Part shown: positions 7,411 to 56,066 of the stretch, one piece after another
How positions within the stretch are numbered: the first letter of the stretch is position 1
Layout: each line of letters opens with the position of its first letter
DNA from: Piedraia hortae CBS 480.64
Lineage: Eukaryota
Length of the DNA: 64,000 bases
Direction of reading: 5' to 3'
Assembly (NCBI GenBank): GCA_010093745.1
Contig: MU006014.1
Span: forward strand, 1-64,000
Position numbers and translations under genes: made by a program
Notes under the pieces: model-generated
The model's database searches: none
What the model was told of the DNA's origin: nothing
Seen by the model: the letters and a program-made list of their open reading frames with translations, nothing else

Positions 7411-8211
7411 ATGTCCACCCTAACCGACTATACCACCCTCCCCCTCTCCCTCCCACCCCAGCCCTCCTTCCCCACAAAAGCAAAACACTACATCTACATC
7501 CGCACGCACACCCCCAACCTCCCCACGGCAACCTCCAACCGCGAGCTCTTCCTGTCGAACATCCCCCTCGATGCAACCCCACAAGGCCTCAAGTCCATCT
7601 TCTCTGGCCTCGGAGGGGGGAAGATCGAACACATCACCTTCGACGAAGCTGCACCCTCGAGAGGGTTGAGGAAGAAACAGCTGGGGAGGAGAAAACGGCG
7701 TGCCTCCACCGCCGGAGAAGAGGTCGGCACGCTACCCCGAACTGTGGAGAGGGAGTTACATCCCTCTGGCCGCGCGATAGTGAGGTTCGTGGATGGGGTT
7801 AGTAGAGATGCTGCGCTTAGGGAGGTGAAGAGAATGAGTAAGAAAGGGATGGAGTGGAGGGATGTTCCGCTTGGGGTACAGAGATATCAGAAGATGGTGG
7901 AAATGAGGTACCCCGATCCTGTGGTGCTGCAGAAGAGCGTGGATGAGTTCATGGAGGAGTTTAATAGGGAAGAGGAGAGGGAGAGGAAGAAGAGGAGGAC
8001 GTCGAAGGTGGATGATGATGGGTTTGTTACTGTTACAAGGGGGGTTAAGAGGGATGAGGCGCCTAGGGAAGTGAAGAAGGTTGGGAAGGAGGATTTCTAT
8101 AGGTTTCAGATGAGGGAGAAGAGGAAGGCGGACGAAAAGGATTTGATCAAGAGGTATGAGAGGGATGTTAAGAAAATGGAGGCGATGAAGAAGTTGAAGC
8201 CTCAAGGGTGA
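7411..8211 (+). CDS. RRP7: Ribosomal RNA-processing protein 7
   Basis: N-terminal RRM-like segment (HYIYIRTH...RELFLSNIPLDAT) and the C-terminal RRP7 signature (YPDP..LQKSVDEFMEEF...VDDDGFVTVTRG...DFYRFQMREKRK). ATG at 7411; no intron required. Confidence 0.92.
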   Translation: MSTLTDYTTLPLSLPPQPSFPTKAKHYIYIRTHTPNLPTATSNRELFLSNIPLDATPQGLKSIFSGLGGGKIEHITFDEAAPSRGLRKKQLGRRKRRASTAGEEVGTLPRTVERELHPSGRAIVRFVDGVSRDAALREVKRMSKKGMEWRDVPLGVQRYQKMVEMRYPDPVVLQKSVDEFMEEFNREEERERKKRRTSKVDDDGFVTVTRGVKRDEAPREVKKVGKEDFYRFQMREKRKADEKDLIKRYERDVKKMEAMKKLKPQG

Positions 8212-17319: not shown

Positions 17320-17658
17320 GACGCTGTAAGATAGACGAAATGTTCATGTCAGCCGATAGACTAGATCGAATTTCGAATTCAAAAGTGTGCCAAGCCTTCG
17401 ACGTGATCGAACGTGGTGAGTTTTTGCTAGGAAGCAGCTTAGATGTGATCGCTTACGTTTCGGAGAGCAAGTCTACGGCTGGTTTACGGGATTTTGCACA
17501 TAGATCTCATGCTCCTGACATTCAAATAGCTACATAAAGAATGCAAATCCATTTCGCGGCGACTTCAACTCGTTCTTCGACTCACATCTGTTTCTGTTTC
17601 GCATCTTCTTCCCACGACTGTGCGGGGTCACCGCTTCATCTTTCTTCTTTCTTCCAAA

Positions 17659-18531
17659 ATGGCCTCCAAACTGCTCAAAGCGCCCCTAAAGCTCGCCCTC
17701 GTGCAACTCTCCGCGGGGGCCGATAAGTCTGCCAACCTCTCCCGTGCGTGTTCCAAGATCCGCGAGGCCAAAGCCCAAGGTGCCGACCTCGTCGTGCTGC
17801 CCGAGTGCTTCAACTCGCCCTACGGGACGAAATACTTTCCCAAATACGCAGAAACGCTCGAACCCTCGCCACCAACAAACGACCAATCCCCCAGCTTCCA
17901 TGCCCTCAGCGCCATCGCGCGTGAGACTAAAGTCTGGCTCGTGGGCGGGAGCATCCCCGAGCGTTCACCCGACGCAAAACTCTACAACACCAGCCTAATT
18001 TTCAAACCCGATGGCTCCTTGGCAGACAAACACCGCAAAATCCATCTCTTCGACATCGACATTCCCGGCAAAATCGCCTTCCACGAAAGCGAAGTCCTTA
18101 GCCCCGGGAACAAAATCACCATAATCGACGTGGACGGGTACGGCAAAGTAGCAGTAGCAATCTGCTACGATGTGCGTTTCCCCGAATTAGCCATGATTGC
18201 TGCTCGGAAGGGCGCGTTTCTGCTCGTCTACCCCGGCGCGTTTAACCTCACGACTGGTGCTCTGCATTGGGAGTTGCAAGCAAGGGCTCGCGCGGTGGAT
18301 AATCAAGTCTACGTCGCCATGTGCAGTCCCGCGAGGGATATGGGCGCGGATTATAATGCTTGGGGGCATAGTCTGATTGTCAATCCGAAAGCGGAGGTTA
18401 TGGCGCAGTTGGGTGAGGAGGAGGGGGTTGTGTACGCGGAGTTGAAGGGGGAGGTTATTGACGAGACGAGAAAGGGAATTCCGATTTATGAGCAGAGGAG
18501 GTTTGATGTTTATCCAGATGTGAGTCAGTAG
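17659..18531 (+). CDS. NIT3: Carbon-nitrogen hydrolase, omega-amidase (yeast Nit3/human NIT2 type)
   Basis: Catalytic triad motifs LPECFNSPY, HRKIHLFDIDIPG and AICYDVRFPE, plus ARAVDNQ, AWGHS and QRRFDVY. ATG at 17659. Confidence 0.93.
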   Translation: MASKLLKAPLKLALVQLSAGADKSANLSRACSKIREAKAQGADLVVLPECFNSPYGTKYFPKYAETLEPSPPTNDQSPSFHALSAIARETKVWLVGGSIPERSPDAKLYNTSLIFKPDGSLADKHRKIHLFDIDIPGKIAFHESEVLSPGNKITIIDVDGYGKVAVAICYDVRFPELAMIAARKGAFLLVYPGAFNLTTGALHWELQARARAVDNQVYVAMCSPARDMGADYNAWGHSLIVNPKAEVMAQLGEEEGVVYAELKGEVIDETRKGIPIYEQRRFDVYPDVSQ

Positions 18532-18539
18532 GGGAGGGC

Positions 18540-18624
18540 NNNNNNNNNNNNNNNNNNNNNNNNNNNNNNNNNNNNNNNNNNNNNNNNNNNNNNNNNNNNN
18601 NNNNNNNNNNNNNNNNNNNNNNNN
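18540..18624. other. Assembly gap (N run)
   Basis: Run of N. Confidence 1.
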
Positions 18625-18686
18625 AAATGGGTGGTTGTTGGGAGATGGGGAGGGGATGTTGAGGCATCCTACTTTATCCTATCGTT

Positions 18687-21675
18687 ATGTCGTCCGATGA
18701 GATTAAAACTTTTCGAAGACGGTTGCCGTGGCTTCAGGATAGGAGGGTTCTGTCTGAGGGGACGGCGGAAATTCAGCCCGTGCAGTCTCAGTCTGTTGAT
18801 GTGCCGTCCCAGCCTGATGTTGCATCCAACCCTCCGTCAGAGTACAGTTCCAGTTCGCCGGTCAATATTCAGCGTCATGATCTAGATGGGCGGTATGACG
18901 ATGACGATGTCTCGCCTTCGTCGAGAATGCCAACTTTCGAGGAAGAGGGACGAGAACGTCTCGAACAGGAGAGACAGCCCGCTCCAAGAGTCCATTTCCA
19001 AGACCCAGGACCGTCAATTCTGAGAAAATCGTCTTACCAGCCTCAATTCACCACCGCTCCACCACGTAGTCGGTCTTTTTCCGATCGAAGACGAAGCTCC
19101 GCCGTGCCAAGAGTATCGCCAAAAAGGAACAGCATCGATCCAAGCCAGGAAAGAAGGCCAACTCTAACCCAACTGCCTCCCCACCTCGAAGAGAGCTCCG
19201 ACGAGGATGATGATGATGATGAAGACGACGATGTCATTGAACTGGCTGAGCTCGAACACGGCCGTCCTCGACGATCATCATCCCTTCAGGCACAATATCG
19301 TCCTTCGATCTCTAGGATTACCCCTCGTCGTCAGTCCCAACAGGCCCTCAGCGAGACTATCGACGACATGGAAGACCTCATGGACGAAGCCGTCTCTCTA
19401 GCCAGAAACGCCTCGATGCAGGGCAGACCAGACGACGTCAAGGACATTTTCGACTCTGCTACAAGAACGGTCCGTCGGGCAAGTTCTGCCTTGCCTGGGG
19501 AGGCGCCCGCGCCGGGAATTGGAGTCCGTGATTTCGCAGACCTAGACGTCCATGAACATCGTGGCTCGGTGAGCATTCCTACAGCAGAAGACGCTGAGCT
19601 ACGTCGTCGATCAAAGGCTTCCATTTCGCAGCCACCAAGGTTCCCTCGACGGGGCACGCAGCAGAATGAAATTAGGCCTGATTATGTTGGAGAATTTCTG
19701 GACGACTTGCAGGAGAATCACCCGGATACGATGCAGGACATCAAAGATGAGTTTAGGCCTGTGCTTACTTTGCCCGAGGACACTGGGTTGGATTTTGATC
19801 TTGGCGGTGTGGGCAAGTTTTTCACGTCAGGCAAACGTCGGAACAAGCGTCAACCTATTGCCAGGCTGTGGAGCATGAGTCGCAAACGCCTCGTCGCGAT
19901 CGTTGCGTGTCTGAATACCATCTTCATCGGTCTCGTGTCTGGCATCTACGCCGGGGAAGTTCCGAAAATGCAATACCAAATCGCAGATACCGAACATAGA
20001 GTCATTCTCGGCAACGTGATGCTCTTCCTCGGTCTTGGGCTGTCAACCCTCCTCTTCTGGCCCTTGCCTCTTCTCCACGGCAGGAAAACTTACATCCTCC
20101 TCGGCTTTGCCATCCTCCTCCCGCTGCAATTTCCCCAAGCGATGGTCGTATCCTCCTTCCGCGCCCCACGAACCCTCTGGCGCGTCGGACTCCTACTCCC
20201 ACGCATCTTCTCCGGAATCGCCTTGGGGTTCATCAACATCAACACCCTCCCCACCTTGTTCGACCTCTTTGGCTGCTCCTTGATGCAAACATCCCCCCAC
20301 GAAGAAGTCGTCGACACTTTTGACATCCGTCGCCAAGGCGGCGGCGTAGGGATCTGGCTAGGCTACTGGTCCTGGGCCTTTACCGGTTCCCTATCCCTCG
20401 GCTTCGCCACTGGCGCAGCCATCATTTCAAAACTCCACTCCTCGTGGGGATTCTACATCACCGTAATTCTCCTCGCCATCGGGTGTGGAATCAACGTCCT
20501 CGTCCCAGAAACAAGAAAAAACTCCCACCGGGGTTCACTGCTAACCTACCTCGACGAGAAAGAACGTCTCCGTCGCACAATCGCGCGAGGGGAGGTGAAA
20601 CTCCACATGGAAAATACCGGACCGAAATATGCCTAGGAGGAATGTTTCGCTGGTGTAAGGCTCATGACGCGTATGATCCTCCAACCTGGTTTCGCTGCAC
20701 TGGCGATCTACCTCGCTTGGGTCGTTGCGCAGGTAACGCTCATCATCCTTGTATGTCTCTCTCCCGTCCCTACGGGGGAGGTGCTAACTCCCTCCCTACT
20801 AGTTCCTCGGCGCCTTATTATCGAGGGAATACATCTGGCACTCCCAGTACGTCGGCCTTGGCGTCCTGAGCGTTGCCATCGGCGCTGCGTTAGCGATCCC
20901 ACTCTCCAAAGCTTCCTTCTTCTCGAGAGCGAGAGTCACGCCTCCGCGGAGCGACTCTATGACTCTAACCACCCCCTCATCTTCCTCCGGTGGTGGCTTG
21001 AAGGGATTCCACTGGACCTCCCACCTTCTCCGCCGCATTCTCTTCACATTCACCCTGCCCCTCGCGGCAGCGTGTTTCGCCGCCACAGCCGCCGGGCATC
21101 CCATCCCGGCCATAGTCCCCATCCTCGCCTGCGGCGCAGTCGGCTTCCTAACCAACCTCGCCGTCGCGGAAGTCGTGGGAATCGTAATGGAGGCGTTCGA
21201 CACTTCGGACCTCCAACCCGGCGTTAATTCACGACATAGGGTAGAGTCACTCCCTACGGTCGTGAAGAGGAGGAGGACGAATTACTCCTCCTTTCCCCGC
21301 GTCTGCGCGGGCGTGTTTCTCGCCCAAGGGGTGGGTTGGTGTTTCGCTGCTGCTGCGACGGCTGTGAGTGGGACTGTGACGAGGGCGATCGGGGCGCGGA
21401 AGGCGGTTGGGATTACCGCGGGTGTGTTGTTCTTTTTTACGGTGCTTTTTGCTGCTGTGATGGTGAGGTTTAGGAGGGTGAGAGTTGTGCCGGATCAGGC
21501 GTGGGGGGAGGAGGTTTTCAGGAGGGAGAGTTTGAGGAACGACCCCCAAGGGGAGATGGATTGGAGACCGGTTGTGGTGGGGAATCCGTCGGGGAAAGAG
21601 AGGAGGGTTAATCTTTTGGAGATGGGACAGTGGACTAGGTGGAGTGAGATTAGGAGGTTGAATCGGTTGTTGTGA
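18687..21675 (+). CDS. Large MFS transporter-like protein (long disordered N-terminus, ~978 codons) with one in-frame TAG at 20634-20636
   Basis: Exon 18687-20750, phase-0 intron 20751-20802 (GTATGT...GCTAAC...TAG), exon 20803-21675. It encodes multiple TM helices and the motif WPLPLLHGRK. The frame stays open and TM-coding on both sides of the TAG (GPKYA*EECFAGVRLMTRMILQPGF). Confidence 0.82.
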
Positions 21676-22027
21676 GGGGAGGGTTAGGGAGGGGAGGGAT
21701 GCTTCGCGGGTGAATTGACTGACCTAGGGATGCTTCGTGTTTCTTTGGCTCCTGGGATTACCTGTGAGATTTAGATATATTCTTCGAGAGAGTGTTTGGC
21801 TTCCTTGGGGTGTTTGATTTCCCAGTGGGTTTCTGTTCTGAGGGGGTTTCTTGTTGACGTTGTGGGTCGTCTCCAAGACGCATTGCCGTTTCGTGGACCG
21901 CTTTCGAACGGTGAAGAGACTTGCTTCCTGAAATCCTATCGTTGTGATGGGTTTTTCTCAACGTTTCGCAAAGCTCTCCCGTCTGACATTCCCAGTGCAC
22001 GAGCTAAGCCGGCCCGAGCCTAGTGGC

Positions 22028-30677: not shown

Positions 30678-32521
30678 CTAGGGAAGTTTGTATTTTACCC
30701 AGGGTGTAACCAACATGGCTTTCCCATCTTTTTCAGTGAGAAATGAGCACCACGGCACAGGGGTGCGATAGGAAATTGACGTGGAGGGTGACTCGGCATG
30801 AGTATTATGCTTTGAACCTGCAACATTGGCGATTTGCTCCACGTCAATCATTTGCGCGTATGTTAGTCGTTGCTCCAATTGATTCTGATCAAGCGTGCCG
30901 AAAATAATCGCGCTTCTCACTGGCCATTGATTGGTGCATAAATGGGTGACAAATTGCTGTCAGAAGACTCCGGTACCCACTTAAGTGAGTTGGAGGTTTC
31001 ATTGCCAGACTTACAGCACGTATGCTTAAGGAAAGATTAGATCCTTGAACACGTCCATGTCAAGGATATCCCCAGTTCTAACCCTATACCCTTTAGAATC
31101 CTTGTTATGAGTCTCATTCCTCAACAGGTTGCAAGATTTCACAAAATATCAAAACTGTAATCCGCAAGATTCGGAGCATATCGACCAAGAACGAGTCCTG
31201 GTGTCATGATATCGTCACCATTCTGAAGAGTGCTTCGCATGTCAGTTATGAGAAGGATGCTGTAGCTGTAGGGACTTACCGTCCTGTTTTCGGTGAGAGA
31301 TAAAGCTCCTTTAGACGAGAAAAGATCGGCGGCTTCACGTCCTCGTAAAAAGTTGTATGGGCCAGACTTAGGGGTCCTCGTATTTGACATGTCGAAAGCC
31401 TTGGGCAAAACAATCCCAGGCTCTCCGGAATGCTAGAGTCAAAGCAATGACGAGCTGCAAAAGTAAGGTCTCCAAGCCCAGGGGGGGCGGGAAACCAATT
31501 GGTGAAAGTCGTCATTTATCAATGAAGAAGCTTGCAGACCGAGCCACCGGAAATAGTTGCCAATGGAGAGGACAGTAGATCTGGTGAGTTTCGAAATTTT
31601 CTCAAGGTCTGACCCGCAAAGTTTCGCATCATTCCATCCAAGGCATAGGCTTGTCAGGTTTGTTAAATCGTCTACGGCTTCAAAAAGTCTGTAAGACCAG
31701 CCTCTCGTCGTTATGGTAAGTTTTCTTAGGCCCGTTGTTAGACAAAGGAGGGTGGCGAAAACGGACTGGCCAATCTGATCTCCAAGCTCCTCTAGGGCCG
31801 GAAAAACAATCATTGGCTAGCCAACCAGGCTATTGACCACTATTGAATCTATATTGAGGCTGAATGTGAGCGTATTAAATTTGGTCAAGTGCAGTGCAGC
31901 ATGACAGAAGGCTTCAGTCGCTTCTTCAGTGCTTTCGCTGGTATCGACGCAAGATATGAATTGGACCAGGCCTGTCAGTGGCCGCATCAAATGCAGAAAG
32001 GAATGATCAGGGCTGCGTAAACTTGTAAAATAATGGCAGGCGAGCACCTTCACATTCGGGCATTTAACAGGAATGAGCATCCTGACGTTGTTTTCCATCT
32101 TCGTGGACGGCAGACTCAAACACCCTAAATTAGGATGCAAATATTGCCCGAAACAGGAAATTTTCAGATACTCGGATTTGATATTGTCGTTGAGGCAAAG
32201 ATGGGAGAGGCGTGGGAAGGCGAGTCTCTGGGTCGAACGACAATCCGCAAGCCGGTGCCCTAACATGCCGCTCCCCTTTCTGACATGACTAATACTCCGA
32301 GCTTTATTGGCGTAGTATTGTTTCCGCATAGATGAGAGTGTTGTGAATGCTCTCAAAGGAGCCGTGCTCCATTTGAATTCCATCGTAACTTCCTCCCAGA
32401 CTTTACAGACTTGTATCACGCTAAGCAATGTGCTCGAGTCATGCTTGAAGTGTTCCATGACCTTCAGAACAATTTCGGTAGGCAAAGAGGAAACAAATGT
32501 TGCGCCGCTACTAGTAGACAT
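30678..32521 (-). pseudogene. F-box/LRR-like protein pseudogene
   Basis: N-terminal F-box-like LPTEIVLKVMEHF....TLLSVIQVCKVW followed by LxxLxL repeats. In-frame TAG at 31817-31819, then further frameshifted fragments; the 3' end is approximate. Confidence 0.7.
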
Positions 32522-51077: not shown

Positions 51078-51344
51078 TTTGGTACGTGTCGTTGGGCGGG
51101 CGGCGGAGGTCGCGGGTGCGGCCCGTGCGCCGAGGGGTCTGACAAGCACGCGTCAACAGCTGCGAAAATCTTTCAACTGTCCAAAACTCCCGCCACACCC
51201 ACTTTGGCTCAAAGCCAACCGCACCACGCGATTCAGCACGCAAGAAAGCTTCTGCTGACTGCGGTTTGGAACATTGACCGCCCACGGTGGCGATGGAAGA
51301 GGGGGTAGTTATCGAACCAGAACACCTCTGCATCCGCCTCTGAC

Positions 51345-54300
51345 ATGGCTACGCCCGTCAAATACGTGGCAAAGCATCAGCGGAGCCCGGAGACGGGCCA
51401 GGCGGCCACTCCCCGCGAGCCGCGCGACGATGACGACGATGCAGACCCGGTTGCGACAGGAAATGGCGAAAACGTGGATGAGGCGGCGGCCAACGGCGAG
51501 ACGGCCGAGATAATGGGGCCGCCCAGGAAGAAACGCAAGAAGGAGTCGCCGCCGTGGAAGTTTCCGGTTGCCGCAGAGAGCTTGGTGCAGACCAAGGACG
51601 GCCGTAGGGTCTCTGCGCGCGTTAATGGCGGCGCATCTCCCTCGCCTCAGTCTGCAGCAAAGGCCAGAGCGGCTAGTCCCCCATGGCGCTCCTGCGAGGC
51701 TGACGTTCCCTCCTCCTTTCAACACAACGGCAGACGCAAGAGCGGCCGCGTCAACAAAGATCTGATGATGTCGCCTGGGAGCGCAAATGGAGTAGATGCT
51801 GCGAAAAACAAACCGGCAAAGAAGAAGGATAGTGGCAAACCTGTGAAGAAGGAGGAAACCGTCGAGAAGAGGAGGTCCAGCAGAGTGTCGGCCGCCAAAG
51901 GTCAAGCCGTCCCAGTGGAAGAAGCCGCGCCCACGCCGACCCCCAAGACTCGTAAATCTGTCAGAAATTCTGTTGCTTCAAATTCGCCAGAAGTTACAAA
52001 GCCCAGTCCTAAACGACGCAAAATGGAGGAACAGACGGTGACTCTGCCAAGTGTATCTCCCATTCAGCCAAAGCCTCGAATCAAGCTGCGGACACAAGTC
52101 AGCAAGCCCATCTTCCCACCTCCTCATCCGCAAGCCCGCGTTCCCGTTCCCGCCCACCCTCCCATGCTCAGTATCTTCCAGATATTGGACCAATACGAAC
52201 TCAAGGAGGCACAGCAGCCCTACGTCGACACTCTGCAGGGCCCGCCGAGCGAGAGTGAGTTGAAGCGTAGAAGTGACGAGCGGGCGTTGGAAGAGGCTCT
52301 GATTCGGATGAAACTCATTGAAGCTGGTAAGCCCGGGGGATTACTGAGCAGAGAGAAATGTAGCATCTACGATGAAGAACCGCAAAACGAGCCCCCCAAG
52401 CAATATGGCCATCCTGATCATCTTGCCAGCCATGCACTTGACTTCCGACTGCGCCTTGCCCGGGAAAAGGCCAACCACAAAACGCTGGCCAAGAATGTGG
52501 CCCATGAAGCTATGGAGGAATGGAAGCGACGGCATGGACCGACAGAAGAGGACTTGATGGAAGAACAGGACAAGATCTTCAAGATGATTCACAAACAGTG
52601 TGTGGCTGATATGCGGGCTAAGTGGGAAATGGTCGAGAAACACGTCAAGGAGCGGCGTAGGTTGAGATGGGAGGCTGCGGAGAATTACAGGCGTCAGGAG
52701 CGACTGCAGAAGCAACTCGAGCAGGCTGAACTTATGGTTGCCAAGCAGCGGGGTGTTGATGATGAGCAGATGGATGATGTGGACATGGATGAGGATTCAG
52801 TCGGAGATGTTGCCGGCGGCGAAAGCAGCGAGGAAGAGACTGGGTTCCGGGAGCCCAAGTGGGCGAATGACGGTGAAGAAGAAAATATGTCAGAGTCGGA
52901 GTCTGAATCGGAGGATGCTGATGGTGGTGAAATGGGCTCGGAAGAACTCGCTGCTTATCTCGCTCACAGAAAGTCGTTGGATGAAGGGGATCAGCCCCCG
53001 TTGGCTGGAGTAAGCCCAAGAGAGGATGTTGTAATGGAGGACCGCCGGTCTGCCGGCGGAGACACCACACGTCCGCAATCTCGTCAATCCCGCCAATCCC
53101 GTCAGTCACCCGCATTTGAGCCCCCAGCAGATATTGAGGGCAACCTCTCAGAGGACGAGTCTGTTGAAATGGTTGATTCTGATGACAATATGAGCAGCTC
53201 AGGCAGCTCAGGCAGCTCAGGCAGCGAGGGAGGCAGTGACGACGGTGATGATGTGGAAGATGCTGCTATTACCACTCTGGGCTTGTTGTACAGTCCCAAG
53301 AACTTGCAGAAAGCTGTAGGTTTACCTACGCCCGGCACCAGCGCCGAGGGAGATGCGAGGGATGCCACTACAGAGCCAATCTTGGAAGACAATGTAGATG
53401 ACCAGACGTCTGCTGGGGCTGCAGTCAAGGATGAGCAAGCCACAGTCGAGATTTCAACCCCAGTGGTCGAGACTCCCTCAACTCCAGGCCCCAAGAACCT
53501 CGTTCCTGTTCCTTCTTTGCTCTGCGGTACGTTACGTTCGTATCAATATGCCGGCCTGGATTGGTTGGCTTCGTTGTATCGTAACCACACCAATGGCATT
53601 TTGGCTGACGAAATGGGTCTGGGTAAAACCATCCAGACCATCGCCTTGCTTGCCCACCTTGCCGAGGAAAAAGGCGTCTGGGATCCTCACCTCGTCATTG
53701 TCCCGACTTCTGTCATATTAAACTGGGTCAACGAGTTTCGCAAGTTCTTGCCAGGCTTCCGAGTTCTGGCATACTACGGCTCCGCAGATGAACGCAGACT
53801 AAAGCGTAATCACTGGGTTAACGATCCTCATCTGGATAAGAAACAGAGAGGCTACAACGTTGTCATCACGTCTTACAATGTCGCTATGCAGGACATCAAC
53901 GCCATTCGAAATGTTCAGTGGCATTACCTCGTCCTAGATGAAGCCCACAATATCAGAAACTTCAACAGCCAGCGATGGCAAGTCCTCATCAGACTCAAGA
54001 CGCATGCGAGGTTGCTGCTGACCGGCACTCCTCTCCAGAACAGCCTCACCGAGCTCTGGTCTCTTCTGACCTTTTTGACGGCAGGTGACGACGATCCGGC
54101 CCATGGAGACTTGGAAGAGTTTCTGAGTCACTGGAAGGAGCCGGTGAAGGAGATCTTTGAACGTGGGGTTACTGAACTCTCAAAAGAGGCGCAGAAAGTC
54201 ATTGACCAGCTTCACATCTCGCTGCGGCCTTTTCTGCTTCGTCGTTTGAAGACTGAGGTGGAAAAGGACCTGCCCAAGAAGACGGAGTCTGTGGTCGTCT

Positions 54301-56066
54301 GTAAACTGAGCAAGAGACAGCGGCAGCTCTACCAGGAGTATATGGGTCTAGCTAGCACTCGTGAAAGCCTGGCGAGAGGTAACGCTGTCAGTGCCGGCAA
54401 GGTGCTGCTCAGCCTGCGTCGCGTTTGCAACCACCCGGATCTATTCGATCCGCGACCTGTCCAAACCAGCTACGCAATGGAAACGTCCATCGTGGAGCCT
54501 TTTTCGATCAAAGAGAAGTTGATCAGGAAGCTGTTGGGTCAGCAAAAAGAGGTGCCGCAAAGTCTCGTCTTGCTCAAGCTAGAGAGCCGATCAGTCAAGG
54601 CCATTGCACGCAGTCGTCAGCTCAGTGCCGTGCATCTCTTGCAGCGAGAAGTTGACAAAATCGCACAGCAATCTGCTCTTCAACCCGGGTATGGGTCCTT
54701 GGTTGGAGGCAGGTCTGGTCAGAGACTGCGTCTACGAGAGCGGAAACTGCAGCATCTGCGGGATGGCATCCAGATGACGCGATCTGCACTGTCAGAGGTG
54801 CCCATCTATGGCTCCGACCTTCGTGAACTAGTCACTCTGCGTACTGGTCGCATATGGCACGTGGTTCGACAGCAACGGGGCCAGCACCCGTATAAGATCC
54901 TTCGCGCTTGGCCCGCTCTGGGAAAACGGCCGCTGCAGTTTATTGACAAGTCGGACTGGTTGTTGTCGCAGACAACTGCTCTACAGTCTGATGTCCTCAC
55001 TTTAGACCGGATGGGCGAACGCATGCAGGACACGTTGGTCCGCTTTGCCTTCTGTCCGCCCATTGTCAAGGCTCCTATGCTGGACTTTGTCATCCCGCCG
55101 CTCATGCAGTCCAACATTCGGTCTGATCCTTCCTACCCACGTGAATCTGACTTTGCCCACGAAGCACGCAGCCGCACCAGCATCGTCTTTCCCGACAAGC
55201 GCCTCCTGGTCTATGACTCAGGCAAATTACAAACCCTCACCAAATTGCTACGCGAACTCCAAGCCAAAAACTCGCGAAGCCTCATCTTTACCCAAATGAC
55301 CGGAACCCTGAACGTCCTCGAACAGTTCCTCAACCTCCTCAACCTACCCTACCTCCGTCTAGACGGCAGCACGACCGTCGAACGACGCCAATACATCGCC
55401 TCTGAATTCAACCGTCCCGATTCAAAATACCAATGCATGATCCTCTCCTCACGCGCCGGCGGGGTTGGTCTCAACCTCGTAGGTGCCAGCTCCGTCATCT
55501 TCTTCGACCTCGACTGGAACCCTCAAATGGACCGACAATGCATGGACCGCGCCCACCGCATCGGCCAAGTCCGCGACGTCCAAGTCTTCAAAATGGTCAG
55601 CGAGAAAACCGTGGAAGAAAACATCCTCCGTCGCGCACAACAAAAATCCCTCCTCGACCAAACCGTCATCCAAGAAGGTCACTTTACCACAGAATACCAA
55701 CAACCCTCCCGCAGTGAAGCCAATGTCGAATCCGCGATTGAGAGATTTCTCGGTGGGGATGATAAGACGACTAATAAAGCGATTGAGTCGATTGAGGAGA
55801 AGGAAGACATTGCTGCTGCGAAGAGGGCTGCCGAGGAGGAGAGGCGGGAGGAAGGGGGAGATGATTTCGGCGACAGGACGAGAGCGGGCTCGGTTGTTGA
55901 TGTTGTTGAGGAAGAGATTCCAGAGGAGAGGAAAGGGCATGTGGATTATTGGATGGTTGAGCTTGTGGAGAATATGATGGAGGACGTGCCCTTTGTGCCG
56001 CCCCCGGTGAGGAGGCTCGATAAAAATGGGAGGGATCCGAGTCATAGACCAAAGAGGAAGAGGTAG
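51345..56066 (+). CDS. SWR1: SWR1 chromatin-remodelling ATPase (H2A.Z deposition)
   Basis: HSA-like helix, acidic region, NGILADEMGLGKTIQTIALLAHLA, LDEAHNI.NF.SQRWQ, split ATPase with a long insertion, FPDKRLLVYDSGKLQ and DLDWNP.MD.QC.DRAHRIGQ. Confidence 0.95.
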   Translation: MATPVKYVAKHQRSPETGQAATPREPRDDDDDADPVATGNGENVDEAAANGETAEIMGPPRKKRKKESPPWKFPVAAESLVQTKDGRRVSARVNGGASPSPQSAAKARAASPPWRSCEADVPSSFQHNGRRKSGRVNKDLMMSPGSANGVDAAKNKPAKKKDSGKPVKKEETVEKRRSSRVSAAKGQAVPVEEAAPTPTPKTRKSVRNSVASNSPEVTKPSPKRRKMEEQTVTLPSVSPIQPKPRIKLRTQVSKPIFPPPHPQARVPVPAHPPMLSIFQILDQYELKEAQQPYVDTLQGPPSESELKRRSDERALEEALIRMKLIEAGKPGGLLSREKCSIYDEEPQNEPPKQYGHPDHLASHALDFRLRLAREKANHKTLAKNVAHEAMEEWKRRHGPTEEDLMEEQDKIFKMIHKQCVADMRAKWEMVEKHVKERRRLRWEAAENYRRQERLQKQLEQAELMVAKQRGVDDEQMDDVDMDEDSVGDVAGGESSEEETGFREPKWANDGEEENMSESESESEDADGGEMGSEELAAYLAHRKSLDEGDQPPLAGVSPREDVVMEDRRSAGGDTTRPQSRQSRQSRQSPAFEPPADIEGNLSEDESVEMVDSDDNMSSSGSSGSSGSEGGSDDGDDVEDAAITTLGLLYSPKNLQKAVGLPTPGTSAEGDARDATTEPILEDNVDDQTSAGAAVKDEQATVEISTPVVETPSTPGPKNLVPVPSLLCGTLRSYQYAGLDWLASLYRNHTNGILADEMGLGKTIQTIALLAHLAEEKGVWDPHLVIVPTSVILNWVNEFRKFLPGFRVLAYYGSADERRLKRNHWVNDPHLDKKQRGYNVVITSYNVAMQDINAIRNVQWHYLVLDEAHNIRNFNSQRWQVLIRLKTHARLLLTGTPLQNSLTELWSLLTFLTAGDDDPAHGDLEEFLSHWKEPVKEIFERGVTELSKEAQKVIDQLHISLRPFLLRRLKTEVEKDLPKKTESVVVCKLSKRQRQLYQEYMGLASTRESLARGNAVSAGKVLLSLRRVCNHPDLFDPRPVQTSYAMETSIVEPFSIKEKLIRKLLGQQKEVPQSLVLLKLESRSVKAIARSRQLSAVHLLQREVDKIAQQSALQPGYGSLVGGRSGQRLRLRERKLQHLRDGIQMTRSALSEVPIYGSDLRELVTLRTGRIWHVVRQQRGQHPYKILRAWPALGKRPLQFIDKSDWLLSQTTALQSDVLTLDRMGERMQDTLVRFAFCPPIVKAPMLDFVIPPLMQSNIRSDPSYPRESDFAHEARSRTSIVFPDKRLLVYDSGKLQTLTKLLRELQAKNSRSLIFTQMTGTLNVLEQFLNLLNLPYLRLDGSTTVERRQYIASEFNRPDSKYQCMILSSRAGGVGLNLVGASSVIFFDLDWNPQMDRQCMDRAHRIGQVRDVQVFKMVSEKTVEENILRRAQQKSLLDQTVIQEGHFTTEYQQPSRSEANVESAIERFLGGDDKTTNKAIESIEEKEDIAAAKRAAEEERREEGGDDFGDRTRAGSVVDVVEEEIPEERKGHVDYWMVELVENMMEDVPFVPPPVRRLDKNGRDPSHRPKRKR

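Follow-up and report, generated by a model that had tools for sequence, protein, structure and literature searches.

An AMD1-related gene interrupted by a single TAG

In this study, we analysed a stretch of 64,000 nucleotides (nt) from Piedraia hortae CBS 480.64 (assembly GCA_010093745.1, contig MU006014.1, positions 1 to 64,000 of the forward strand; hereafter the window) and within it a gene at 18687-21675, a relative of AMD1 from Fusarium graminearum, whose reading frame is interrupted by one TAG (Table 1). The open reading frame (ORF) starting at 18687 reaches this TAG at 20634-20636 (GPKYA*EECFAG), the same frame stays open on to 20750, and a scan of the entire gene for lesions yielded no stop or frameshift besides this TAG. 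Reading through the stop would give a product of 978 amino acids (aa) and terminating there one of 649 aa, which is where the public model of the gene ends. A first-pass annotation of the window had described a lone in-frame UAG in an otherwise intact transporter gene, followed by a preserved frame and a canonical intron, and all of this was borne out by the reading of the ORF and by a spliced contig described below. The RLPWL motif near the N-terminus is common to the window protein and its homologs, and exon 2 encodes the C-terminal tail motif GNPSGK..RR.N.LE.G...RW.EIRRLN.L.

The exon 1 product aligns with FGSG_10094 of F. graminearum PH-1 (P0509) at 50% over 302 aa (E 2e-95) and the exon 2 product at 45% over 304 aa (E 3e-68), matching Fusarium residues 907-1197. 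Both matches are collinear, contiguous at Fusarium residues 906/907, and meet exactly at the intron of the window gene. FGSG_10094 is the gene named AMD1 in PMC5496914; it was reached by a search from a Fusarium albosuccineum member, which led to the cluster holding the F. graminearum PH-1 protein, the only F. graminearum cluster among the matches listed (best 120 of 825, E <= 0.001). Judged by this alignment over both exons, the gene is AMD1-related, as had been supposed, and is probably the Dothideomycete counterpart of Fusarium AMD1. The supposition that the host is a Dothideomycete also holds, since all nearest relatives belong to this class: Baudoinia (66%), Elasticomyces, Meristemomyces, Recurvomyces, Friedmanniomyces and Hortaea (62-65%), Elsinoe (62%) and Zymoseptoria (59%), with no relative nearer than Baudoinia in the protein collection searched; Baudoinia, Elasticomyces, Hortaea and Elsinoe together fall within 60-66%. 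The C-terminal half defines a small family of 159 representative clusters (E <= 0.001) among 1.84 billion, Sordariomycete members included.

The earlier assignment of the gene to the major facilitator superfamily (MFS) stands only in part. Hydropathy gives five strong hydrophobic 19-mers upstream of the stop, probably joined by a weaker sixth, and about six downstream, so that the stop appears to lie in the central loop, as described earlier. Look-alikes of the N-terminal half found by a language model are MFS_1 clusters (0.97, 202/256 features), which we treat as a lead, and many homologs carry a precomputed PF07690 label. On the other side, Pfam MFS_1 (PF07690) at E <= 1 detects neither the two halves of the window protein nor the Baudoinia protein P0124, F. 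graminearum AMD1 itself reaches 29.6 bits, below the cut-off of 33.4, and a profile search against solved structures (PDB) gave no match. The assignment is thus less secure than published descriptions imply.

The stretch is represented in two public runs, X1 and X2, which come from one and the same organism. The X1 DNA contig is identical to the window letter for letter; X1 is probably the source of the window, so that this agreement does not constitute independent support. X2 comes from a different sample and a different study, and although its RNA label is only a guess, we take it as cDNA-like because its contig lacks the intron. This contig of 2810 nt covers 18687-20750 and continues directly with 20803-21478, skipping the 52 nt (GT..AG) in between, with 0 differing letters. 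The intron is therefore real, splicing does not remove the TAG, and 20635 has been read as A a second time, independently. Two doubts attached to the first-pass annotation are consequently excluded, namely that the TAG is a base-call error and that it is spliced out. The position of the intron also matches that at homologous metagenome loci. A 42-nt GT..AG segment (20595-20636), which would excise the stop in frame, was considered and rejected as an intron, since its removal would delete invariant residues and the X2 contig retains it. A mutation of the repeat-induced point mutation (RIP) type, raised earlier as an origin of the stop, is not supported by the composition of the gene (TpA/ApT 0.53, (CpA+TpG)/(ApC+GpT) 1.06, GC 0.56).

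Two further observations concern the ends of the gene. A run of N lies just upstream of the start codon (18541-18625) and the X2 contig reaches 70 nt upstream of 18687, so that the 5' untranslated region extends into the masked stretch. At the other end of the gene, 21634 is followed directly by 21724 in an X2 contig, the skipped segment having CT..AC ends, equivalent to GT..AG on the minus strand, and a minus-strand contig of 3378 nt reaches 21724-21800. This points to a spliced transcript that converges on the AMD1-like gene and overlaps its 3' end.

Table 1. Coordinates of the AMD1-related gene and its stop site (window positions), and of in-frame stops in related metagenome loci (positions within the locus)
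Feature	Position	Strand	Description
Exon 1, AMD1-family gene	18687..20750	+	ATG at 18687; TAG at codon 650; N-terminal disordered region (~390 aa) and first transporter half
Predicted RNA hairpin, 18 pairs	20614..20656	+	20614-20620/20650-20656, 20623-20630/20642-20649, 20632-20634/20638-20640
Ala649 (GCC)	20631..20633	+	replaces Trp of 110/112 homologs; its two C's pair with G20639 and G20640 in the predicted fold
In-frame TAG, codon 650	20634..20636	+	candidate edited base A20635
Cys653 Phe654 (TGT TTC)	20643..20648	+	replace Val (106/112) and Trp (72/112); four predicted stem pairs opposite CCG AAA TAT
Intron, 52 nt, GT..AG	20751..20802	+	114 nt 3' of the TAG; absent from the X2 contig (20750 followed by 20803), present in the X1 DNA contig
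Exon 2	20803..21675	+	second transporter half and family-specific C-terminal tail; ends in TGA
TAG, locus L001	L001:2572		Trp of PIAREW; nearest P0005 (unnamed metagenome protein) 79%, nearest named Elsinoe 41%
TAG, locus L008 (identical in L009)	L008:2458		Trp of PIAREW, as in L001; Teratosphaeriaceae-like, ~70%
TAG, locus L008 (identical in L009)	L008:4260		Trp of GS.AW; Teratosphaeriaceae-like, ~70%
TAG, locus L012	L012:2877		Trp in Elsinoe; Myriangium 78%
TAG, locus L037	L037:315		variable position; ~61% to several Dothideomycetes

Residues, sequence context and predicted fold at the stop

In 112 homologs that cover the whole core, the surroundings of the stop follow the motif GPK[W/Y]-W-[variable aromatic]-[E/Q/D]-E-V-W-A-G, and the TAG falls on the third aromatic position, which varies among them (F 53, W 38, G 9, others 12). 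This residue is Trp in Baudoinia, Elasticomyces, Meristemomyces, Recurvomyces, Zymoseptoria, Elsinoe and Aureobasidium and Phe in Hortaea, which makes a TGG ancestor of the TAG plausible, though not certain. The earlier description of the site as Trp-rich (GPKWW.EE) is accordingly right for the column as such, but the near-invariant Trp is located one codon earlier. At that preceding codon and at two codons shortly downstream, the window gene carries Ala649, Cys653 and Phe654, replacements private to it among the family.

The part of the gene after the stop shows no decay in these comparisons and is as conserved as the part before it. At columns conserved to at least 95% among the other members, the window gene deviates in 7/88 cases upstream and 4/73 downstream of the stop, and its downstream-minus-upstream difference in identity to the family (-0.022) is close to the family mean (-0.017, standard deviation 0.024; rank 43/113). 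By the same alignments, the lineage is fast-evolving.

The candidate edited base A20635 is surrounded by C at -2, U at -1, G at +1, G at +2, A at +3 and G at +4 (C-U-[A]-G-G-A-G), in agreement with the U-A-G-G-A context noted earlier, with U at -1 and purines at +1 and +3. Feng et al. (PMC9600606) describe as enriched at Fusarium editing sites C/U at -2, U at -1, A/G at +1, G at +2, A/G at +3 and A/G at +4, and give 8.7% as the share of Fusarium sites having all six preferred neighbours. A20635 has 6/6 of them.

The site is further predicted to sit at the tip of an RNA hairpin of 18 pairs, with 20635-20637 (A-G-G) as the loop; if the apical three pairs are opened, a 7-nt loop C-U-A-G-G-A-G results. 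The 51-mer around the site folds with a minimum free energy of -17.5 kcal/mol (z -3.95), a value as good being reached by 1/200 shuffles. In longer contexts of the spliced mRNA (+-50 to +-400 nt) the predicted pair probabilities amount to 0.64-1.0, with 0.85-1.0 for the outer and central stem, and the probability that A20635 is unpaired is at least 0.98 throughout. The three private codons GCC, TGT and TTC contribute six of the stem pairs. Random sense codons at positions 649, 653 and 654 reached the observed stability in 25/5000 draws, family-consensus residues at these positions gave -10.7 to -14.4 kcal/mol, and synonymous resampling of the whole segment reached it in 171/5000 draws. The homologous 51-mers from 67 metagenome loci have a mean of -10.96 kcal/mol (standard deviation 2.54), with 0/67 reaching -17.5, and when the TAG was placed in silico into 52 distinct homologous 51-mers, 1/52 became as stable. 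An origin of the hairpin by template switching was rejected, since its arms match as DNA in only 10/12 positions and depend on G-U pairing, and a single event does not explain altered codons that fall into two distinct groups.

As a control, all 1107 TAG triplets on both strands of the window were evaluated, of which 32 have the 6/6 motif and 23 place their A in the loop of a hairpin whose 51-mer is no less stable than that at 20634. Both features coincide in 2/1107, the site at 20634 and an antisense TAG at 21149 (-) inside exon 2, which combines the 6/6 motif with an even stronger hairpin (-24.2 kcal/mol).

In-frame stops in related genes

A first metagenome scan with a single protein as query found no relative. 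In a second scan with the family alignment A2, 80 loci with DNA were retrieved, which fall into 56 groups at 97% identity and together with the window gene give 57 distinct family genes; these were read by tblastn with eight family proteins. With the window gene included, six in-frame stops with conserved flanks were observed in 5/57 genes, and 6/6 are TAG; the four genes other than that of the window stand on Dothideomycete-like contigs. No TGA or TAA stands in a coding context among the 57 genes, each TGA or TAA within the alignments being part of an intron or a gapped stretch, and no frameshift was found among them either, as apparent frame changes sit at introns common to other loci, mostly at the junction of exon 1 and exon 2. 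Under a neutral single-base model with the codons of the window gene, TAG accounts for 0.38 of the nonsense paths, giving P(6/6) ~0.003. Tolerance of TAG only is what editing predicts, because UAG is the only one of the three stops that has the required U before an A whose conversion gives UGG. The corrected stops of F. graminearum reported in PMC11156358 and PMC10776026 are likewise UAG.

At five of the six TAG sites, a near relative has Trp in the aligned position, and among the 1332 codons aligned to a Trp of the query we counted TGG 748, TAG 5, TGA 0 and TAA 0. The stops in the relatives lie at differing places, before helix 1, in a loop of the N-terminal half, after helix 7 and in the C-terminal tail. 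The Trp codon of PIAREW is replaced by TAG in both L001 and L008, whose lineages are unrelated. In L001, L008 and L012 the stops are preceded by 645-774 open codons. Around its site, L001 differs from the sister locus L006, which has TGG, only by synonymous changes, and dN/dS (the ratio of nonsynonymous to synonymous substitution rates) between both amounts to 0.034 for the 305 codons downstream of the stop, where dS is close to saturation, and to 0.22 for the disordered N-terminus. The local structure at three of the sites is unusually stable, with controls as stable in 0/38 cases for L001, 4/38 for the first and 2/15 for the second site of L008. Neighbouring genes within the loci (3-5 loci, ~4250 aligned residues) showed no in-frame stop in true frames, a sample too small for a baseline.

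The PIAREW site also stands out in public gene models. Ten models of Hypocreales AMD1 orthologs omit exactly the 24 residues 'VSLR...PIARDW' that are kept in F. graminearum, namely those of seven Fusarium species, Dactylonectria, Trichoderma virens FT-333 and Metarhizium album (P0262, P0398, P0400-P0403, P0423, P0424, P0442, P0299), and models of Elsinoe ampelina (P0009), Lecanosticta (P0011) and Teratosphaeria nubilosa (P0008) likewise skip this site or start around it (PIAREW/PIARDW). An intron modelled to begin with the Val codon (GT.) and to finish with the Trp codon must end in AG, which would fit a TAG at that Trp. Judged from the gene models, the skipped segments would fit a hidden TAG at the PIARDW Trp in a class with established editing.

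Turning to the surroundings of the gene, an omega-amidase (nitrilase-family) gene is located directly upstream of it (17530-18531). Fused public models (P0091, named omega-amidase, and P0239, with PF00795 and MFS_1) suggest that other Dothideomycetes and lichen fungi share this arrangement, and the amidase is also present at 5/80 metagenome loci. The N-terminal region contains an acidic GAT/GAA repeat (DEDDDDDEDDD, 19199-19233) that matches several places of another X1 contig and, being of low complexity, has no consequence for the finding. Elsewhere in the window, an F-box-like gene (31439-32521, minus strand; Pfam F-box-like, 25.2 bits) ends at a TAG (31817-31819), after which an in-frame leucine-rich-repeat-like ORF of 125 codons follows; it may be a second interrupted gene or end at an ordinary stop, and its context (c-U-A-G-c-c-a, A paired, z -0.8) is weaker than that of the 20634 site. 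Besides the AMD1-like gene, nine same-frame split ORFs were noted, this F-box-like gene among them. Two at 14.5-14.9 kb were rejected as antisense to a helicase gene and one at 51306 as lying upstream of an SWR1-like start; those at 8209, 15246, 51978, 52341 and 59013 are all split by TGA or TAA.

Proposed editing, its rivals and known systems

We propose that the TAG at codon 650 may act as a conditional stop. During ordinary growth, the spliced mRNA would carry the UAG and give at most the 649-aa half protein, whereas at some stage, most likely during sexual development, A20635 would be deaminated to inosine, so that UIG could be read as UGG (Trp) and the full 978-aa protein be made. The site would be displayed in the manner of a tRNA anticodon loop, with U before the A, purines after it and the whole at the tip of a stable hairpin, which would correspond to the substrate preferred by the Tad2/Tad3-based editing of Sordariomycetes. 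Given these cis-features, the absence of decay behind the stop and the restriction of the relatives' stops to TAG, we regard stage-specific UAG-to-UGG correction by A-to-I editing as the best single explanation, a candidate from comparative evidence to which we assign a probability of roughly 0.55. That editing occurs, the enzyme that performs it and the stage at which it takes place are matters we infer.

A number of points weigh against this proposal. The X2 consensus at 20635 is A, that is unedited, in a sample whose growth stage is not stated and as a contig, which hides minority variants; in favour of editing, Qi et al. (2024, PMC10776026) describe some stop-corrected pseudogenes as transcribed in hyphae, some abundantly, so that unedited transcript is expected outside the sexual stage. 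The antisense site at 21149 shows that motif and hairpin together can arise by chance, about once in this 64-kb window, and the tests of the hairpin were designed with its existence already known. Among the relatives, L012 and L037 have poor contexts, with motif scores of 3/6 and 4/6 and a local structure at or below the median (40/40 and 38/56 controls as stable). The bias towards Trp, given TAG, yields p 0.03-0.4 depending on transition bias if 4/6 sites are counted and p ~0.003-0.06 in a hand calculation with 5/6, so that it is weakly significant and was downgraded as independent evidence, and a RIP-like C-to-T bias at CpA would likewise favour TGG-to-TAG changes and weaken the TAG-only argument. 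The window protein is moreover the strongest deviator of 113 at conserved columns (11/161), with others close (11, 10 and 9), which could also reflect generally relaxed constraint, and neither the conservation tests nor the dN/dS of the relative are able to date a recent lesion. Finally, our full-text literature searches found no report of mRNA editing in Dothideomycetes. PMC11087585 describes the role of Ame1 as having evolved in Sordariomycetes, PMC10776026 places the origin of the machinery in the Sordariomycete ancestor, and both treat Pezizomycetes as an independent case. Editing is listed in PMC11156358 as known from Sordariomycetes and Pyronema and as not found in Aspergillus nidulans or Botrytis cinerea. 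The same source calls the question of which Pezizomycotina classes edit their mRNA still open, and pseudothecium-forming fungi were named as untested in 2020 (PMC7306014).

The main rival is a plain null allele or young pseudogene, in which TGG (or TAY) would have changed to TAG in a gene dispensable in clonal growth, with a recent lesion and with hairpin and motif as a coincidence. The sole RNA consensus is unedited, editing in this class is unreported in the literature found, the protein tops the deviators, a recent lesion escapes dating by the measures above, and TGG-to-TAG is a common transition. In addition, many of the nearest relatives are rock-inhabiting black fungi, for which a sexual stage is often unknown. 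However, a null allele requires the 6/6 motif and the apical hairpin to meet by coincidence (2/1107 TAGs) and three private replacements of conserved residues all to add stem pairs by coincidence as well (25/5000 draws), and it leaves aside that five family genes were hit by TAG and by no TGA, TAA or frameshift, and that the same PIAREW Trp codon became TAG in unrelated L001 and L008. We consider it unlikely, though the most serious of the rivals. It is yet more improbable that the genuine explanation is translational recoding, by which some ribosomes would read the UAG as sense with a near-cognate or suppressor tRNA, perhaps aided by local structure, and produce enough full-length protein. 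The preserved downstream frame would be expected in that case too, the TAG-only tolerance in relatives also fits UAG-specific suppression, and the stop contexts UAG-CAA of L037 and UAG-C of L008 belong to the leaky ones. On the other hand, the readthrough that the first-pass annotation had offered as an option fits poorly with a stop that sits inside the hairpin loop and not upstream of a stimulatory structure, and the six TAG sites have no downstream motif in common. G at +4, as at the window site, is not a known leaky context and is one of efficient termination. No TGA was seen among the in-frame stops of the family, although UGA is usually the leakiest stop, and 5/6 sites replace Trp, whereas UAG readthrough inserts mainly Gln, Tyr or Lys. 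TAG moreover terminates the long SWR1-like ORF at 51309-56066 and thus serves as an ordinary stop in the same window.

A functional truncated or split product is very improbable. Here, the 649-aa half with the disordered region and six helices would suffice by itself, or the C-terminal half would be made from Met660 or Met663 and both halves would assemble. ATG codons are indeed present 24 and 33 nt past the stop, both halves are conserved, and split halves of MFS transporters can complement each other, but reinitiation after an ORF of 650 codons is not expected in eukaryotes, the scattered stops of the relatives share no common split point, and unedited truncated proteins of such genes are described as without function in Fusarium (Qi 2024, PMC10776026). 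Hardly any weight is left for a sequencing or assembly error in a genome that truly reads TGG: the lack of independence of X1 is, beyond the prior, all that can be said for it, while the X2 contig, which stems from a separate study with its own sample, spans the site and differs in 0 letters.

Returning to stage-specific UAG-to-UGG editing, a broader reading, which we advance tentatively and hold at slightly less than even odds, would extend it to the class as a whole. Dothideomycetes would then have stage-specific UAG-to-UGG mRNA editing, either as a third origin or as a system older than the published Sordariomycete one, and AMD1 would be recurrently gated by editing across classes, with Trp codons repeatedly swapped for TAG (that of PIAREW twice, a codon which Hypocreales models also appear to skip) and the protein made only when editing is on. 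The related Fusarium gene must be repaired by RNA editing before spores are formed, and the stop of the window gene sits in a setting that looks suited to the same repair. The leading model ties the editing machinery to Sordariomycetes (PMC11087585). If true, restorative editing would also operate in the largest ascomycete class, to which many crop pathogens and extremotolerant fungi belong, the redirection of a tRNA deaminase to mRNA would have to be explained anew, and genes annotated as truncated or with invented introns would need re-annotation. If editing were refuted, the TAG-only lesion bias of one gene family would be left unexplained.

The closest known system is F. graminearum AMD1 itself (FGSG_10094, PSC04). 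Its product, an MFS-like membrane protein whose N-terminus is long and disordered, is needed for ascus maturation, and its premature UAG at codon 211 is converted to UGG by sexual-stage A-to-I editing, with 97.6% edited in perithecia according to PMC5496914. The window gene belongs to the same family, has the same collinear architecture of long disordered N-terminus, MFS-like core and conserved C-terminal tail, and shares the lone in-frame TAG in an otherwise intact ORF with U at -1. In contrast, its stop is located at codon 650 in the central loop and not, as described for Fusarium in PMC5496914, at codon 211 in the N-terminal region, which implies an independent origin; its host is a Dothideomycete and not a Sordariomycete, and the Fusarium editing has been proven by RNA sequencing (RNA-seq) and allele swap, while the window gene is known from sequence comparison. 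The same source describes Fusarium AMD1 transcripts as rare outside perithecia, whereas for the window gene a spliced transcript is present in X2, for which the stage is not stated. A wider frame is given by the 71 pseudogenes with premature-stop correction reported for F. graminearum by Qi et al. 2024 (PMC10776026), in which TAG mostly derives from TGG, independent origins recur at the same site, proteins with disordered regions are enriched and hyphal transcripts occur. The PIAREW Trp codon, hit twice in L001 and L008, mirrors these repeated origins. That study scored only sites equivalent to those of F. graminearum, finding origins within Sordariomycetes and few in Leotiomycetes, with Dothideomycetes absent from its main text.

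Outside Sordariomycetes, Pyronema confluens (Pezizomycetes) provides a precedent for sexual-stage A-to-I editing and perhaps for more than one origin (PMC11156358, PMC11087585), though it belongs to another class and has sites confirmed by RNA-seq, in contrast to the comparative DNA evidence available here. As the interaction of Ame1 with Tad3 is reported to be a Sordariomycete innovation (PMC11087585), another activator or an independent origin would be needed in Piedraia. With respect to the substrate, the Tad2/Tad3 (ADAT2/3) enzyme, which acts on A34 of tRNA and in its mRNA form together with Ame1, is described as favouring U 5' of the A, a purine-rich 3' side and a hairpin loop (PMC10962958, PMC11087585, PMC11156358), as seen or, in the case of the loop, predicted at the window site. 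The minimum-energy fold has a loop of 3 nt, unlike the 7 nt of an anticodon loop. In a comparison that is our own, the 7-nt loop obtained by opening the apical pairs would place A20635 at the position of A34.

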